Shown piece by piece: positions 24,239 to 42,859 of a DNA stretch of 64,000 nt (positions are counted from its first letter, which is position 1; each line of letters begins with the position of its first letter). The position numbers were made by a program, and so were the translations under genes. The stretch is from NCBI GenBank assembly GCA_964512985.1, contig CAZELI010000004.1:17782-81781 (forward strand). The letters run 5' to 3'. This DNA comes from an uncultured Gammaproteobacteria bacterium. GTDB lineage: Bacteria; Cyanobacteriota; Vampirovibrionia; LMEP-6097. A model generated the notes under the pieces. That model saw nothing but the letters and a program-made list of their open reading frames with translations. It was not told the DNA's origin and did not search any database.

Positions 24239-24297
24239 ACAACAGTAGTTAATAGTGGATCCTTACGTCGCAACCTACGGTTGCTCCTCAGGATGAC
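24195..24297. repeat. Palindromic repeat family A, copy 1
   Basis: GTCATCCTGAG-hairpin-GTAAGGATCCACT...AGTGGATCCTTAC-hairpin-CTCAGGATGAC. Confidence 0.92.
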
Positions 24298-24317
24298 GAC
24301 TACATTTCACAATATTT

Positions 24318-36279: not shown

Positions 36280-36388
36280 GTCATCCTGAGGAGCAACCGT
36301 AGGTTGCGACGTAAGGATCCACTACTACGAATAGTCTATTAATAAGAGTGGATCCTTACGGTCGGGCTTCGCCCTCCCTCAGGATGAC
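36280..36388. repeat. Repeat family A copy 3
   Basis: Arms are those of copy 1 inverted; spacer nearly identical to copy 2. Confidence 0.92.
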
Positions 36389-36407
36389 GAATTTGATTGC
36401 TCGATTA

Positions 36408-38309
36408 TTATAACGGTCTTTTAAACACTATATCCCCAATTTTTAATTCCGCTTTATCCCAATTGTTGACGGGTTTTGGAGTCCAGGTTTTGGAAGCAAG
36501 GCTGTTGGATTTTTGGATATTACATTCTTGGCAGCAAGCATATAAATTACGGGTGTCTTTGTTTAATTCAGGAAACTTAGAGGCTGGTAAGTGATGATCG
36601 TAGCTTGCTAAATGGCTATTTAATAAAGCAGGGTCAGAACACTTACTTAGAGCTTGTTTCACAGTATTAGGATGCAATAATAATTTGCCGCAATAAACAC
36701 AAGTGTAATGATCTTTCTGCCAGATTTCTTCTAACTGTTGTAGATTAGGTTTGGATTGAGGTCTAGAACTAAGAGTTTTATTCGCTTTAACTTTGAAATT
36801 AGTTTCTAATAGTTCTCGTTTAAGTATGTCTTGTCCTAAGCTATGTAAGAAGGCTAGATAGCTCTCCTTAAGCCAGTTCTCACCGATAAAGTCCCCTCTG
36901 ATAATTACTGATTGTTCGTTAGATTCTGGATCATTAATGACAATCTCGAAATTAGTTTTATTGCCAAGAGAGTTGATTATAGTTTTCAATCCCTTCGTTA
37001 AAGTGATAGAAATATCGACAGAGCCAAACCTAGAAATAAATTTCCTCGCGTCTGCGCTTAGTCTATCTTCTGGTGATGAATAAACAAAGTCATCACGATA
37101 GCTTTTTCGAGGTTCTAGATCGTTGAAGTTTTCATCTACTAGTTCCATCGCGACCTCTTCTTGAACGGTTTTTAGGATGCTCGATTTAAAATTTAGGTCG
37201 TTTTTATTGGCACGTAAGTAATGTTCACTGTTACTGATTAAAGCACTATTGAAACTACTATCGGCTAAGCTAGTTTGACTTAGCTCATAATCTTTCATGC
37301 TAGGTTGGAATGATTTATTAGATTGATAATGACTGTCAGAGAGTGCTTTGGCTACCGCATCACCTACAAGAGTATATATTTTATTGGTTTCGTGATATTT
37401 TACTTCCTGTTTATTAGGATGAACATTTACATCCACATCTTCCTTAGGTAATTCTAGATGTATTACAGCGATGGGGTATTTTCCAGTACCTAGTATATCC
37501 TTGTAGACCGCTTCTACAGCGGAACGAAGGATGTAACACTTGAGGATGCGATTGTTTACTATAGTGAATATTCCGCGTTTGTCAGAGCGGAAGACGTAAG
37601 CCTTACTACTATAGCCAGTAACTTTAAGAGGTCCTCTTGAAAGACTAACTTCTACTAATCCATCACAGATCTCATCAGAGAAGATCTCCGCTAAGACTGT
37701 TTTAATATTATTACTCCCAGAAGTTTTAAGGTTGGATTTGTGATCTATAGTTAAGCTGAAAGCCACTGCTGGATTAGCAATAGCTAAAGATCTTACTGTA
37801 TCGATAATATTAGTACGTTCTTTATTATTAGATTTAAGAAACTTAAGTCTGGCAGGTGTATTGAAGAAAAGATCATCTATAACTATATTGGTACCATTAC
37901 TAGCACCTGTCATAGTGATATCTTCTTTACCGTTTTCTATATAAATTTTAGTTGCGTGCTTATCTTCTTTTCTTTTACTAATACAAGTTAGTTTAGATAC
38001 GGCTGCAATACTAGCGAGCGCTTCACCGCGAAAGCCATTAGTCATTAAGGCATGTAAATCTTCTATAGTGGAGATCTTACTAGTGGCATGACGTTTAAAA
38101 GCCAGAGATAATTCATCAGGAGAGATACCAGAACCATTATCTACAACTTGGATCTTAAGTAATTGCTTAGAAACATCTATGTCTATCTTGCTAGCTTGGG
38201 CATCTATGCTATTCTCTACTAATTCTTTAATGATCGAACTAGGGCCTTCTACGACTTCACCTGCAGCGATTTGATTAGCGATATGTTCAGGCAATACTAT
38301 AATTGGCAC
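36408..38309 (-). CDS. mutL: MutL GHKL ATPase fused to a C-terminal HNH nuclease domain
   Basis: IAAGEVV, KELVENSIDA, RHATSKI, GFRGEALASI, DVNVHPNK.EV; C-terminal CVYC...DHHLP...NLYACCQECNIQK; GTG start. Confidence 0.92.
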   Translation of the reverse strand: MPIIVLPEHIANQIAAGEVVEGPSSIIKELVENSIDAQASKIDIDVSKQLLKIQVVDNGSGISPDELSLAFKRHATSKISTIEDLHALMTNGFRGEALASIAAVSKLTCISKRKEDKHATKIYIENGKEDITMTGASNGTNIVIDDLFFNTPARLKFLKSNNKERTNIIDTVRSLAIANPAVAFSLTIDHKSNLKTSGSNNIKTVLAEIFSDEICDGLVEVSLSRGPLKVTGYSSKAYVFRSDKRGIFTIVNNRILKCYILRSAVEAVYKDILGTGKYPIAVIHLELPKEDVDVNVHPNKQEVKYHETNKIYTLVGDAVAKALSDSHYQSNKSFQPSMKDYELSQTSLADSSFNSALISNSEHYLRANKNDLNFKSSILKTVQEEVAMELVDENFNDLEPRKSYRDDFVYSSPEDRLSADARKFISRFGSVDISITLTKGLKTIINSLGNKTNFEIVINDPESNEQSVIIRGDFIGENWLKESYLAFLHSLGQDILKRELLETNFKVKANKTLSSRPQSKPNLQQLEEIWQKDHYTCVYCGKLLLHPNTVKQALSKCSDPALLNSHLASYDHHLPASKFPELNKDTRNLYACCQECNIQKSNSLASKTWTPKPVNNWDKAELKIGDIVFKRPL

Positions 38310-38334
38310 AATATTAATTTTAGCGTAAATGCAC

Positions 38335-38447
38335 GTCATCCTGAGGAGCCTACGAAGTAGGCGACGTCAGGATCCACTTCTCATAAAGTTACTTTCAATA
38401 AATAGTGGATCCTTACGTCGCAACCTACGGTTGCTCCTCAGGATGAC
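38335..38447. repeat. Repeat family A copy 4, between divergent mutL and uvrB
   Basis: GTCATCCTGAG...CTCAGGATGAC. Confidence 0.92.
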
Positions 38448-38482
38448 GGGATTTGAATACTCTGCTTGCTATAATTTCTATA

Positions 38483-40576
38483 GTGCCTAATATAGAGACC
38501 AAACATCAGTTCAAAGTTACTAGTAAGTTTAAACCTGCTGGCGAGCAGCCGCATGCAATAGCAGAGATCTCTGAGAGAATAGATCAAGGTGTAAATAAAC
38601 AAATTTTGTTAGGAATCACTGGATCAGGTAAAACTTTTACGGTGGCTAATATTATAGAGAAAACTCAGAAACCAGCACTGGTATTGGCTCATAACAAAAC
38701 TCTAGCTGGACAGCTTTGTAATGAGTTTAAAGAGTTTTTCCCAGAGAATAAGGTAGAGTATTTTATTAGTTATTATGATTATTATCAACCAGAGAGCTAT
38801 ATCCCACACTCTGACACATATATAGAGAAGACAGCGAAGGTTAATGATGATATAGATAGATTGCGCTATTCCACGACTAGAGCGATTTTTGAGCGTAATG
38901 ATGTGATAGTAGTAGCTTCTGTGAGTTGCATTTATGGTCTAGGTATTCCAGAGCTATATTATGAATCGGCTATTAGTTTAGAGATAGGCATGGAAATAGA
39001 TCTCAAGCGCTTCTTAGATAAATTAGTAGCAGTTCAATATAGGCGTAATGATATTCAGTTAGCGCGTGGTTTATTTAGGGTCCGAGGCGAGATAGTAGAA
39101 ATTCACCAACCTGATGAAGAAAGGATCTTACGTATAGAATTCTTTGGTGATGAGATAGAAAGGTTATCTCATCTGGATCCTCTGACAGGTGAGATTCTTG
39201 AAACTCTGGATAGCGTAAAGGTCTTTCCTGCTAAGCATTATGTCACTGATGAAGAGACCTTAGAGAAAGCGATTGAGCAGATCGAGAAAGAATTGCATGA
39301 ACGATTAAACGAATTGAAAAAATATGGTAAGGATGTAGAGGCTCAAAGATTATTACAAAGAACTAAATATGATATCGAGATGATGCGTGAAGTCGGTTAT
39401 TGTACGGGCATTGAAAACTATTCCAGAATATTAGAGAATAGGGCTCCAGGCACTGCGCCGCAGGTGCTAATCGATTATATGAACCGTCGTTATGGTGAGG
39501 ATGGTTGGACTTGTTTTATAGATGAATCACATATGACCTTACCTCAGTTAAGAGCTATGTATCATGGGGATTTTAGTCGTAAGTCAGTATTAGTAGATTA
39601 TGGATTCCGTTTACCATGCGCTATAGACAATAGACCGCTTAAATATGATGAGTTTAGTGCGCGAGTTAAGAATATTGTTTACATCTCTGCTACACCTGGT
39701 AATGAAGAATTAGAAGCTTGCCCTAATCCAACAGAATTAATCATTCGTCCGACTGGACTCTTAGATCCAGTGTTAGAGATAGTTCCGACTACAGGACAAA
39801 TAGACCGCTTAATGGAAGAGATTAATCTTAATATTAATAAGAAATTGAATCTTGAACAATGTGACATAGATCCAGGTACCTATTACCCTAAAAATGAAAA
39901 AGTTATTGTTAATACTTTGACTAAAAAAATGGCAGAAGATTTAAGTGAGTATTTGTTCGAGCATGATATTAAAGCTAGATACTTACATAGTGAAATTAAA
40001 TCCTTAGAGAGAATGAAGATACTTAATGATCTACGAAAGGATGAATATGATGTACTTGTGGGTGTTAATCTTCTCAGGGAAGGTATTGATCTTCCAGAGG
40101 TATCCTTGGTTTGCATTATGGATGCTGATAAAGAGGGCTTCTTAAGAAATCATCGTACTTTAATTCAGATGATTGGTCGTGCAGCGCGTAACGTCAATGC
40201 TAGGGTATTGCTGTTCGCTGATAGGATCACAGATAGCATGGCTAAAGCAATAGATGAAACTAATAGACGAAGAGAATTGCAAATTCAATACAACTTAGAG
40301 CATGATATCACTCCTAAGACTATTCTTAAGTCGGTTTCTAATCCACTTCTGGAGGCTTTTGATAAACTTGATGAAGAAGAGAGAGTAGCAGCTGATGCGT
40401 TAATGCAAAGCATCTCTAATAAACCTATTGGACAAATGTCTAAGAAAGATTTAATTCGTGCGATTGATCGTATGGAAGAAGAGATGCATAATTCTGCTAA
40501 GCTTTTAGACTTTGAGAATGCTGCTAAATATAGAGATCAATTAAGATCATTGCGTGAAAAGTTAGAGGAGAAATGA
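38483..40576 (+). CDS. uvrB: Excinuclease ABC subunit B
   Basis: GITGSGKT, YYDYYQPE, DESH, NLLREG, QMIGRAAR, C-terminal UVR domain. Confidence 0.98.
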   Translation: MPNIETKHQFKVTSKFKPAGEQPHAIAEISERIDQGVNKQILLGITGSGKTFTVANIIEKTQKPALVLAHNKTLAGQLCNEFKEFFPENKVEYFISYYDYYQPESYIPHSDTYIEKTAKVNDDIDRLRYSTTRAIFERNDVIVVASVSCIYGLGIPELYYESAISLEIGMEIDLKRFLDKLVAVQYRRNDIQLARGLFRVRGEIVEIHQPDEERILRIEFFGDEIERLSHLDPLTGEILETLDSVKVFPAKHYVTDEETLEKAIEQIEKELHERLNELKKYGKDVEAQRLLQRTKYDIEMMREVGYCTGIENYSRILENRAPGTAPQVLIDYMNRRYGEDGWTCFIDESHMTLPQLRAMYHGDFSRKSVLVDYGFRLPCAIDNRPLKYDEFSARVKNIVYISATPGNEELEACPNPTELIIRPTGLLDPVLEIVPTTGQIDRLMEEINLNINKKLNLEQCDIDPGTYYPKNEKVIVNTLTKKMAEDLSEYLFEHDIKARYLHSEIKSLERMKILNDLRKDEYDVLVGVNLLREGIDLPEVSLVCIMDADKEGFLRNHRTLIQMIGRAARNVNARVLLFADRITDSMAKAIDETNRRRELQIQYNLEHDITPKTILKSVSNPLLEAFDKLDEEERVAADALMQSISNKPIGQMSKKDLIRAIDRMEEEMHNSAKLLDFENAAKYRDQLRSLREKLEEK

Positions 40577-40594: not shown

Positions 40595-41356
40595 TTAATC
40601 ACCTACTCCAGCACCAACTGGTGCTATCGTTTCTGTTTCCTCTCTAGCATTATCGTTCCTATGGCTACTTCTTTCTGCCTTAGAGCTGCTAGAGTCTTCT
40701 TTAGCCGCCGCCGCATCAGCTGCATTCTTATCTATTAGACTTGATATTTTTTGTAGACCTTCTTTAATTGGATTATAGAAAGTTCTACTTATTAAGCCTG
40801 ATTGATTTTCATCCTTAGTTAAATTATCAGCAACAGTTTTAAAGTCAGCGATAAGTTTTGTTATATCTTCGTCTTTGACGGGTTTACCTTCACTTAAACT
40901 ATCTTGAGCAGAAGCAATCCTACCAATTAATGACTGCATTTCACTTTGTCGTTCTCTACTCACACCAACCTTCTCTAGCGCGTCCGCTGACGAGATTGCA
41001 GCTTCTTCCCTGGCATCGGCTACTTCAGTCTTAGCTTGGTTTACTTGAGCTAGAGTTGCTTGCCGTTGGGCCTTTAAATCTTGAAGAGCTGCCTGGTCAA
41101 CTACAGTTTTAGTTTTACCACATGCTCCTCCATCCACCTCTTTGGTTGGTGGAGTACCTATCTTTTCATTGACACTATCTAAGTTTAATTGTTTTGTTTC
41201 TAGTAAACTTTCTTTGGCAGAAATTGCATTTTGAGCTTGAGCAGCCTTAGAAGCTGCTAGATCAGAAGCTAAATTTCCATTTGAAATTTCAGAACTTTTA
41301 GCACTTACGTCCTGTATAGCTTGCTTTAATTGTGATTTGATACTTGTTTCTACCAT
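40595..41356 (-). CDS. Orphan Ala/Gln/Ser-rich coiled-coil protein, paralogous to the N-half of 43524-44984
   Basis: Shared PPTK.V......TKTVVD motif; RBS present. Confidence 0.75.
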   Translation of the reverse strand: MVETSIKSQLKQAIQDVSAKSSEISNGNLASDLAASKAAQAQNAISAKESLLETKQLNLDSVNEKIGTPPTKEVDGGACGKTKTVVDQAALQDLKAQRQATLAQVNQAKTEVADAREEAAISSADALEKVGVSRERQSEMQSLIGRIASAQDSLSEGKPVKDEDITKLIADFKTVADNLTKDENQSGLISRTFYNPIKEGLQKISSLIDKNAADAAAAKEDSSSSKAERSSHRNDNAREETETIAPVGAGVGD

Positions 41357-41368
41357 TATTTCCCGTCC

Positions 41369-42859
41369 CTATGCTTGTCCGTTTGGTACAGCGTCTGCTG
41401 CTGATCCTCCTAAGATATCAGTACTTTGTCTAATCAGACCACGAGCTTGATCTAAAGTTACTGAAGAATTGATACTATTTTTAAACTGAGTAAAGGCATC
41501 ACTTGATCTACCACTTGTGTCAGTATTGGTTGGACTAGTGGGACCTCTACCACTATGATCCTCTTGAGGACCAACATAATTATAGATAGTTCCACCTTGA
41601 TTTAAACCAAGCTCAGTGAGTGCGTTTTGGCTTCTTTGGATAGCTAATTGATATGACTCAATACCTTTGCCTCTTGGATCTTTTCCTCCGCCTATATCAT
41701 CAAATGATTCAAAAATTCCAGTAGGAGTGAAGCGTCCAAAGTTTGCTGAGTTTGGATCTAAATCATATTCCCCTTTTTGAAAACCAGGTACTCCATTATC
41801 TTCAGAATAGTGTAGAGGTGCTGGTGCTTTTCCACTAGCAATATCACTAACATTAGTCTTGAATATTAAATCTACAAACTCTTCTAAATGTGCTTTATTC
41901 GTTAAATCATATGGCACACTCATTGCATGGCCGTCAGCATCAAACTCGGTCGTAGTCAGTCCACCAGACATTTTTTTTAGTTCATCTACAAATCTAAACT
42001 TGACATCTAATAGATCTTTAAGATCTCCATCTTCAACTTTGGTACCTAAATGACCACTCTCTTTGTCAATTTTAATTAATGGTTCACCTTCTGCACCTTT
42101 AATAGGATCGCCATTCTCATCCCGAGGTACTTCAAGCATGAAGTAATCATCACCTTCTTTGATAAAAAATTGAGTACCTAATTTTTTACCATCTTTATCT
42201 TGAAGTCCTTCTACTTCCATGACTCCATCGTTTAGTAGAGCCTTGGCTCCGTCTTGCATGAACTTATCAAAGTTCTGGGTGAATTTTACTTTCAATTCTT
42301 GAAGTTGCTTCTCTGATAAATTTGGATTTTCGATACCAAGCTCGTTAAGCATTTGTCTTAGAACCTGAATCTTAGCTTCAAACACACGAGATCTAGACAT
42401 CTCTTTCTGAGCGACTTTGGCTTCCTGCTTACCCATAATACTATGCCTAGTTGCTTCTTCTAAAGCTTGCTCTGCAAGACCAAGAAGCTTCTTGCCTTGG
42501 TTTCTATCAATAGCACCTTCAGCTACTTTCTCTACGCCTTTAACCATCATCTTGAGTCCTGGACCTTGAACAAAAGGTAGCGCCATCATCGCTGCACCCA
42601 TAGCAATAAACCCCATTCCTACACCAGTTTTGATCGAACCAGTCATCATGAAGGTTTGACCTTGTTGTTTATTCTGTTCAGCACCACTAGCCATATATTT
42701 AGCTACAGCTTGTTGTCTCTCTTGACTTTCTTTTGCAACATCTGCAAGAAAAGCACTTTGGTCTTTTAGATCTTGGTAAGATTGAATTGTACCTTCTTGG
42801 CTCAATCTACTGTTTGAACTAATTGCTTGTGTTGCTTGCTCTTGTATGCTGTTTCCCAT
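41369..42859 (-). CDS. Orphan protein with a Gly/Met-rich hydrophobic segment between coiled coils
   Basis: TGVGMGFIAMGAAMMALPFV; AAGGAG RBS. Confidence 0.75.
   Translation of the reverse strand: MGNSIQEQATQAISSNSRLSQEGTIQSYQDLKDQSAFLADVAKESQERQQAVAKYMASGAEQNKQQGQTFMMTGSIKTGVGMGFIAMGAAMMALPFVQGPGLKMMVKGVEKVAEGAIDRNQGKKLLGLAEQALEEATRHSIMGKQEAKVAQKEMSRSRVFEAKIQVLRQMLNELGIENPNLSEKQLQELKVKFTQNFDKFMQDGAKALLNDGVMEVEGLQDKDGKKLGTQFFIKEGDDYFMLEVPRDENGDPIKGAEGEPLIKIDKESGHLGTKVEDGDLKDLLDVKFRFVDELKKMSGGLTTTEFDADGHAMSVPYDLTNKAHLEEFVDLIFKTNVSDIASGKAPAPLHYSEDNGVPGFQKGEYDLDPNSANFGRFTPTGIFESFDDIGGGKDPRGKGIESYQLAIQRSQNALTELGLNQGGTIYNYVGPQEDHSGRGPTSPTNTDTSGRSSDAFTQFKNSINSSVTLDQARGLIRQSTDILGGSAADAVPNGQA

Follow-up and report, generated by a model that had tools for sequence, protein, structure and literature searches.

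A MutL of the Vampirovibrionia whose C-terminal endonuclease domain is replaced by a predicted dimerisation domain and a putative HNH nuclease domain

We analysed a stretch of 64,000 nucleotides (the window) from an uncultured bacterium of the Vampirovibrionia, a class of cyanobacterial relatives without photosynthesis (contig CAZELI010000004.1, positions 17,782 to 81,781) and describe here one of its genes, which we call mutL-HNH. The gene encodes the ATPase half of the mismatch-repair protein MutL. The usual C-terminal endonuclease domain, MutL_C, appears to be replaced by two unrelated modules, namely a small alpha/beta domain that is predicted to dimerise and a zinc-stabilised HNH domain on a short flexible tether. 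In MutS-MutL repair two solutions for the incision step are established, MutH and the endonuclease at the C-terminus of MutL itself. It is likely, in our view, that mutL-HNH is the orthologous mismatch-repair MutL of its clade and that the HNH domain serves as the incision nuclease. The databases annotate such fusion genes as ordinary 'DNA mismatch repair endonuclease MutL' and therefore the difference is invisible there.

Judged by its profiles and motifs, the part from residue 13 to residue 340 is unambiguously the N-terminal half of a MutL; residues are numbered throughout from the ATG at position 38339, that is, in a protein of 643 amino acids. Pfam detects HATPase_c_3 at residues 35-135 (E = 1.2e-14) and the transducer domain DNA_mis_repair (PF01119) at residues 217-333, the latter with 103.7 bits at a cut-off of 26. 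The NCBIfam model TIGR00585 (mutl) scores 410.5 bits (cut-off 180) and covers only positions 1-353 of its 555. None of the seven full-length PRK00095 models (equivalog or subfamily) reaches its own cut-off with this protein. The best NCBIfam models for this half are all MutL, and those for MzaB, sacsin and BbrUII match just the Bergerat fold (E between 1e-6 and 7e-3). Across 45 aligned homologues (alignment A1) no variation is seen in the ATPase motifs E28, N43, D67-G71 (including D67, G69 and G71), GFRGEAL at 102-108 and K310; we take these residues to have the functions they have in Escherichia coli MutL. The initial annotation, made from the letters of the DNA alone, had read an intact MutL GHKL ATPase and transducer followed by a linker, and the three profile matches agree with it.

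The C-terminal half bears no trace of MutL_C (PF08676) in a Pfam search at E ≤ 1, neither in the mutL-HNH protein nor in any of 27 family members. The domain also finds no match in the organism's own genome, a metagenome-type assembly of 2.31 Mb in 76 contigs that is 87% complete. A regular-expression scan of the protein for the endonuclease motifs DQH, [AS]C[RK] and C[PN]HGR found none of them, as was to be expected from the initial annotation, in which DQHA(x)2E(x)4E, ACR/SCK and CPHGRP had been reported missing; the same scan found two CxxC motifs (547 and 603) and a DH at 581. The MutLs of sister families have DQHIAEER, ACKASVKAG and CPHGRP. When a C-terminal alignment of 27 sequences (A2) is compared by hhalign with six C-terminal domains of sister-family MutLs, the probability of homology to MutL_C is 1.6%. 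On this value we rejected the idea that the conserved domain at residues 431-518, to which we come below, is a remnant of MutL_C. The sole hhalign match extends over 30 columns and pairs the start of the HNH domain (L..IW..D.YTC.YC) with the CPHGRP region; we take it as chance. The same pattern is common where HNH domains begin on their N-terminal side. With MutL_C the protein has lost the domain by which MutLs of the endonuclease type bind the sliding clamp, as far as the accessible text of PMC4678855 describes it. The string SFQPS after the transducer was considered as a clamp-binding motif and dropped, because it is conserved only in part of one family of the class (f1).

A zinc-binding HNH module at the C-terminus was already proposed in the initial annotation, and conserved residues, profile searches and structure comparisons all point to the same assignment. 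Invariant in the 45 sequences of A1 are W540, D543, C547, Y549, C550, H576, D581, H582, N598, C603, C606, N607 and K610. Among 65 loci, which come from two sets that overlap in genomes, 64 have the full pattern CxxC..DH..N..CxxCN..K (40 distinct strings). One locus carries Q at the middle N, and every one of the 65 has kept DH, the final N and the four Cys, so the conservation of the HNH residues, on which the initial annotation had made its interpretation depend, is indeed found. We propose that C547, C550, C603 and C606 are the zinc ligands and that D581-H582 together with N607 are catalytic, N598 being structural.

With the Pfam family HNH (PF01844) every one of the 27 family members gives a match at E ≤ 1 (best value 1.7e-5), and two sequence fragments from relatives reach 22.5 and 23.0 bits. 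Residues 571-617 are matched by the PADLOC HNH models PDC-M01B (E = 8.3e-8) and PtuB (E = 3.6e-5). A profile search of the PDB aligned DH..N..CN with the Cas9 HNH domain of 4ogc (E = 0.022), and the predicted structure (AlphaFold2, AF2) shows a beta-beta-alpha element where DH and CN stand. By VIA-align the best matches of the model are the HNH domains of Cap5 (Z 6.9, root mean square deviation 3.7, 88 residues aligned) and McrA (Z 6.7, root mean square deviation 2.6, 80 aligned). The top rows of a Foldseek search are likewise HNH nucleases, among them the Gme HNH nicking endonuclease (E about 0.1). Among 1.84 billion representatives just 37 clusters match at E ≤ 1e-3. The 15 clusters that are neither MutLs nor MutL fragments all match PF01844 at E ≤ 0.01, and 11 of these 15 clear its cut-off of 21.4 bits. 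Five short representatives of 166-321 residues (P0047, P0051, P0053, P0056 and P0061) may be contig-end fragments or stand-alone C-terminal modules.

Concerning the layout of the C-terminal region, the initial annotation was correct about the HNH module and overlooked a conserved domain of 88 residues (431-518) between linker and HNH. In both alignments the region after the linker consists of two conserved modules, the block 431-518 and the HNH block; the linker itself (341-430) is probably disordered. The first block has the consensus RKFxSRFGSxDIS ... GNKTxFE ... GDFIGENWLKE.YL.FL. The AF2 model of A2, with a mean predicted local distance difference test (pLDDT) of 85.9, shows a five-strand sheet with a long helix, then 11 residues with pLDDT <50 (model residues 88-98) at the tether, and then the beta-beta-alpha domain. 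Modelled alone, domain 431-518 again gives five strands and one long helix (pLDDT 90.2, predicted template modelling score 0.79). The S-R-P of the tether (S98, R99 and P100 in A2, within SRPxxKP) is conserved to at least 90% and thus nearly invariant. This motif could be an element for binding a partner or for contacting DNA.

When two copies of residues 428-643 were submitted to complex prediction, the score was 0.71, and the highest of 3 controls reached 0.11. Of proteins whose structures were solved as pairs of one chain, 20 of 30 attain the mark taken for a homodimer, and of those solved as single chains 1 of 23 does; the counts are approximate, since our own alignment was used. The homodimer runs share at least 54% of their contacts, the pLDDT of the partner is at least 71, and the predicted interface is made by exactly the conserved strand 431-448 and the helix 490-505. 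Domain 431-518 is thus predicted to be the homodimerisation domain. Any MutL needs a constitutive C-terminal dimer, and the predicted dimer fits this need. As to its fold, the wide VIA-align search gave a best Z of 6.0 (LptE, GAF, SecB, beta-lactamase, longin or roadblock-like proteins), Foldseek returned nothing at E ≤ 0.001 for the domain, and the ESM Atlas gave no usable match for residues 428-643. A MutL C-terminal domain is not among the structural matches listed, which excludes neither a relationship nor a new fold.

The exchange is a property of a whole group of families. We sampled the class with 151 Vampirovibrionia genomes of families f1-f11, four of which (f1, f2, f7 and f8) are of the HNH type. 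The new C-terminal module is present in 29/29 genomes of f1, 1/1 of f2, 9/9 of f7 and 11/12 of f8 (50/51), and MutL_C is found in none of them (0/29, 0/1, 0/9 and 0/12; 0/51). Elsewhere in the class MutL_C occurs in 91 of 99 genomes, that is, in f3 1/2, f4 24/31, f5 17/17, f6 32/32, f9 2/2, f10 14/14 and f11 1/1; in a sample of the phylum it occurs in 59 of 61. The HNH C-terminus and MutL_C are mutually exclusive by family, and we are dealing with a replacement and not with an addition. The single f8 genome that lacks the module yields no MutL match at all and is 79% complete. The only further matches to the module, in f4, f5 and f6 (E between 8e-5 and 9e-4), lie in frames of 300-480 residues and are other HNH proteins.

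Some single genomes deserve mention. G002 (f4) and G008 (f3), both 91% complete, have MutS_I and no DNA_mis_repair match; their mutL may be lost or unassembled. In another class of the phylum the MutL at locus L129 (G175:C12) ends a short way into a degenerate C-terminal domain (...LWVVDSAQKGRQRL...). Its genome is the one other genome of the phylum sample without a MutL_C match, and the gene may be truncated or decaying. At G183:C23:45805-46218 (L094) MutL_C matches within a frame of 1398 residues, far above the normal length of a MutL, perhaps through fusion or read-through.

The fusion is carried by 31 named public contigs of metagenome-assembled genomes (MAGs). Their titles read Melainabacteria, Caenarcaniphilales/Caenarcanales, Vampirovibrionia, Cyanobacteria/Cyanobacteriota or simply 'bacterium'; four of the 31 have Gamma- or Proteobacteria labels, which we take as mislabels. 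In 31/31 loci the N-terminal half of MutL lies directly upstream of the C-terminal module. The junction is moreover bridged by contigs of sequencing runs from three studies. One of 1844 nt covers 36519-38362 with 0 differences (this run is possibly that of the source sample), one of 1491 nt from another study covers 36364-37854, also with 0 differences, and one of 1032 nt from a third study covers 36359-37391 and belongs to a relative that is about 91% identical. Absence of the fusion from relatives or reads had been named in the initial annotation as the sign of a chimera, and it is present in relatives and in the contigs of these runs. We are as good as certain that the architecture is real; the fusion is old as well.

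We also calculated a tree of the N-terminal halves (54 rows; IQ-TREE quick search, LG+G4). It contains the window, 19 of the 29 HNH-type loci L005-L033, 4 of the 6 loci L034-L039, all 20 loci of a further set and 10 outgroup loci of the phylum sample; the near-duplicates L009, L012, L014, L021-L025, L028 and L032 were left out. All MutLs of the class form one clade against the outgroup, with a support of 98 in the Shimodaira-Hasegawa-like approximate likelihood ratio test (SH-aLRT). The HNH type is nested with canonical sequences of f3 and f6 in a clade of 29 (SH-aLRT 85), and one change of type suffices. A single swap is compatible with these data and not proven by them. Since the N-terminal halves nest inside the canonical MutLs of the class, the tree points to a vertical descent of mutL-HNH from the MutL of the class with a swap of the C-terminus.

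Of the other genes of mismatch repair, the genome encodes one MutS of 900 residues with domains I-V, two UvrD-type helicases and one DnaN, and its single DNA_mis_repair match is the mutL-HNH gene. A second, canonical mutL, which the initial annotation had considered as the possible carrier of mismatch repair, was thus searched for in this 87% complete genome and not found, and the absence of MutL_C from the 51 clade genomes is in keeping with this. MutS_I is present in 149 of the 151 class genomes and in 49 of the 51 of the four families (f1 28/29, f2 1/1, f7 8/9, f8 12/12); the link between MutS and mutL-HNH is here one of co-occurrence. The MutS of the genome (L040:2777-5479 (-), G000:C21, outside the window) ends in ...GKLPLFESIL, a string that seems similar to the QLxLF type of C-terminal clamp-binding motif. 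MutH (PF02976) has no match in the genome, and the control search was positive in E. coli. The only NucS_C match (39-41 bits) is a protein of 326 residues at L003 (G000:C65), with no Pfam family at E ≤ 0.01 in its first 200 residues and only a C-terminal NucS_C or YhcG-like PD-(D/E)xK domain. This atypical protein has no other feature of NucS; we do not take it for a bona fide NucS and consider NucS improbable as an alternative pathway. It adjoins an open reading frame (ORF) of 449 residues with a weak, sub-threshold match to a Card1-like nuclease (E = 5.3e-4, 20.0 bits at a cut-off of 26.4), and the pair may be a small defence locus.

We infer that the protein nicks DNA, that MutS and ATP activate it and that it serves mismatch repair, and the repair could take the following course. 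MutS, encoded elsewhere in the genome and canonical in its domains, would recognise the mismatch and recruit the MutL dimer. ATP binding would close the GHKL N-terminal domains, and the closure would license the tethered HNH domain, with its one putative active site (D581-H582, N607) and its zinc bound by four Cys, to nick one strand. A UvrD-type helicase, exonucleases, polymerase and ligase would then finish the repair. We can also imagine, though here we lean towards doubt, that the HNH domain is the only incision enzyme of MutS-MutL repair in the four-family clade and that activation and strand choice are unlike both known routes, that is, MutH with hemimethylation and the clamp-activated MutL_C. 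Such a different mechanism is suggested because the clamp-binding MutL_C was discarded together with the old nuclease; the dimerisation domain and the S-R-P motif of the tether are candidate elements for it.

Several observations weigh against the proposed role as an incising MutL. The HNH family PF01844 scores the window's own protein with only 14.1-15.4 bits, below its cut-off, so that of the Pfam architecture expected in the initial annotation (HATPase_c, DNA_mis_repair and HNH without MutL_C) the first two domains and the lack of MutL_C stand and the HNH match stays sub-threshold. The structural HNH matches are of middling strength (Z <7), and the folds as well as the homodimer are predicted ones. 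A regular-expression scan of the protein for the clamp-binding motifs Q..[LIM].P and Q[LM].[LF][FL] found none, and so the known way in which the nuclease of MutL is activated and oriented has no visible counterpart. The dimer would have two HNH sites and could in principle produce double-strand breaks. In the tree the branch uniting all HNH rows has an SH-aLRT of only 49, a weak support for monophyly. Finally, at 87% completeness the own genome alone does not prove the absence of a second mutL, mutH or nucS.

The HNH domain could instead be only a zinc finger that binds DNA or protein, in a mismatch-repair MutL that leaves the incision to another enzyme or to pre-existing nicks such as Okazaki ends. 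The low Pfam score of the own protein would suit this, and E. coli MutL is generally known to work without a nuclease of its own. Catalytically dead HNH-like folds are also described, in the accessible text of 10.64898/2026.09.30.754977, for Tiamat-like type IV-A GHL ATPases. We give this explanation a small chance only. The catalytic DH, the final N and the four Cys would hardly be expected to be invariant across A1 and kept at every locus, with one change at the middle N, and another nuclease fold was gained exactly where a proven nuclease domain was lost; besides, neither MutH nor a convincing NucS was found in the genome. Somewhat less improbable, and in our estimation still unlikely, is a repurposed protein that acts in anti-recombination, another repair or the defence against foreign DNA, classical mismatch repair being lost or altered. 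GHKL ATPases of the MORC, paraMORC and Tiamat kind that are fused or in operon with swapped nucleases, HNH included, occur in restriction and defence according to the accessible parts of PMC2292703 and 10.64898/2026.09.30.754977, and the HNH core is most similar to the defence-system models PDC-M01B and PtuB. These PADLOC matches span just about 45 residues of the HNH core, however, and the N-terminal half is an equivalog-level MutL nested among the canonical MutLs of the class. The gene moreover has one copy only and stands in place of the canonical gene, not beside it, the full MutS1 is kept in nearly all genomes of the clade, and the neighbours in the window are housekeeping genes, with no partner conserved among the related loci.

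An assembly chimera or annotation artefact, in which the 5' half of mutL was joined to an unrelated HNH gene, might be suspected in a metagenome-type assembly of many contigs with repeats on both sides of the gene. The fusion in one frame throughout four families and all public MAG loci, together with the bridging contigs from three studies, refutes it, and we attach practically no credence to it. The initial annotation had left the choice between a MutL-activated HNH nickase and a MutL repurposed for another repair or defence task; the kept MutS with domains I-V, the nested N-terminal half and the lack of a conserved defence neighbourhood favour the putative nickase.

How does mutL-HNH compare with known systems? 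The MutL of the endonuclease type (Bacillus subtilis, Aquifex) shares with it an orthologous GHKL ATPase and transducer, a long flexible linker and a C-terminal region that both dimerises and carries a metal-dependent nuclease, in mutL-HNH by prediction; both co-occur with MutS and occur without MutH. The C-terminal regions, however, are non-homologous by hhalign, and the metal-site motifs and the clamp-binding subdomain are gone. Whereas MutL_C has its nuclease site built into the dimerisation domain, the model of mutL-HNH distributes dimerisation and catalysis over two tethered domains. E. coli MutL is similar in having no MutL_C-type active site and in leaving the incision to a different nuclease fold. 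There, however, the nuclease is MutH, a separate PD-(D/E)xK protein guided by hemimethylated GATC, and in mutL-HNH it would be an HNH domain fused in cis.

The nearest conceptual parallel is MutS7 and the mtMutS of octocorals, in which an HNH domain sits at the C-terminus of a core mismatch-repair ATPase and was proposed to supply the incision in a 'self-contained' repair (PMC3166940, accessible text). In these proteins the HNH is carried by the mismatch sensor MutS and MutL is proposed to be unnecessary, whereas the mutL-HNH clade keeps a separate full MutS1 and its HNH replaces an existing nuclease domain. The MORC, paraMORC and Tiamat-like proteins couple a GHKL-S5 module to interchangeable C-terminal nucleases, HNH-like ones included. 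In the accessible text on them they are separate GHKL families in restriction or defence neighbourhoods, unlike mutL-HNH, an orthologue of MutL that lies among housekeeping genes and whose clade has kept MutS. With McrA, Cap5, PtuB, the HNH of Cas9/IscB and the Gme HNH nickase, our domain has in common the beta-beta-alpha-metal core, the DH..N..N pattern and two CxxC zinc knuckles; the flanking domains differ and the sequence similarity is limited to a core of about 45 residues. For Bacillus, the accessible part of PMC5714182 mentions an earlier proposal that YisB, an HNH protein standing alone, is an analogue of MutH.

The features of the gene and its surroundings are given in Table 1. Counted from the first ATG, the frame extends over 36408..38339 (-) and has 643 codons. 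Translation from the GTG at 38309 gives the N-terminus MPIIVLPEH, which matches the N-termini of the relatives in A1, and the ATG at 38339 falls within a dispersed palindromic repeat. For these two reasons the shorter frame, which is also the one given in the initial annotation, is probably the true coding sequence (CDS).

Table 1. Features of the mutL-HNH gene and its flanks (positions in the window; residues in the numbering of the text)
Feature	Position	Strand	Basis or remark
mutL-HNH CDS	36408..38309	-	probable GTG start 38309; stop codon 36408-36410
MutL N-terminal half, GHKL ATPase and transducer, residues 13-340	37320..38303	-	Pfam, TIGR00585, invariant columns
Variable linker, residues 341-430	37050..37319	-	gappy and unconserved in A1; length differs among relatives
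Alpha/beta domain, residues 431-518, predicted homodimerisation domain	36786..37049	-	AF2, homodimer prediction
Short flexible tether with S-R-P motif (525-527), residues 519-530	36750..36785	-	low pLDDT; A2 conservation
Putative HNH (beta-beta-alpha-metal) nuclease domain, residues 531-643	36411..36749	-	conservation, profiles, model
Palindromic dispersed repeat, mutL-uvrB intergenic	38334..38448	.	context only, non-protein; supplies upstream ATG
Second copy of the palindromic repeat, just 3' of the mutL stop codon	36279..36388	.	G000:C4:54060-54169 in contig coordinates
uvrB, divergent neighbour (context)	38453..40576	+	Pfam UvrB_inter, UvrB, Helicase_C, UVR

In the window mutL-HNH is surrounded by the divergent uvrB and by genes for a CBS-domain protein, a thiolase, a TetR regulator and an ABC exporter. 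The run from CBS to ABC is kept wholly or partly in 11 of the 31 related loci. The initial annotation had stressed the head-to-head arrangement with uvrB in a housekeeping context. This holds for the window, but uvrB is found within 6 kb in 0/31 related loci, and we rejected the linkage as a functional clue. The 31 loci have neither a partner gene nor a neighbourhood of the defence type in common, and nothing suggests a defence island around the gene.

The palindromic element on both sides of mutL is about 115 nt long and has 45-nt arms that are 82% complementary. A partial copy lies at 24251-24298, and the genome has 80 matches counting both strands, that is, about 40 places. The element looks like a miniature inverted-repeat transposable element or a repetitive extragenic palindrome, because it is GC-rich in an AT-rich genome. 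The contig depth at the downstream copy is very high. A joint in the contigs of a related strain leaves out 177 nt around the upstream copy, which is a weak hint only, as the shorter side has 20 letters. Downstream of uvrB two consecutive ORFs, 40595-41356 and 41369-42859 (-), encode 253 and 496 residues; A, Q, S, E and K are frequent in both, and Pfam matches neither of them at E ≤ 1e-4.

The initial annotation knew of no description of this architecture, and in the full-text literature, that is, outside subscription-only papers and supplements, we likewise found none of a MutL orthologue with an HNH domain. With the HNH domain, mismatch repair may possess a third means of incising DNA. We appear to have here a natural experiment in which unrelated parts took the place of the nuclease and dimerisation region in a bona fide MutL and were retained throughout a deep clade alongside MutS, and it raises the question how the strand is chosen without the clamp-binding MutL_C. 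If the HNH domain is indeed a nickase, its separable dimeriser, tether and single-site nuclease would offer a simple system to study how a mismatch signal is converted into a strand-specific nick, and the N-terminal ATPase of MutL would be a general licensing module that is able to drive a foreign nuclease.

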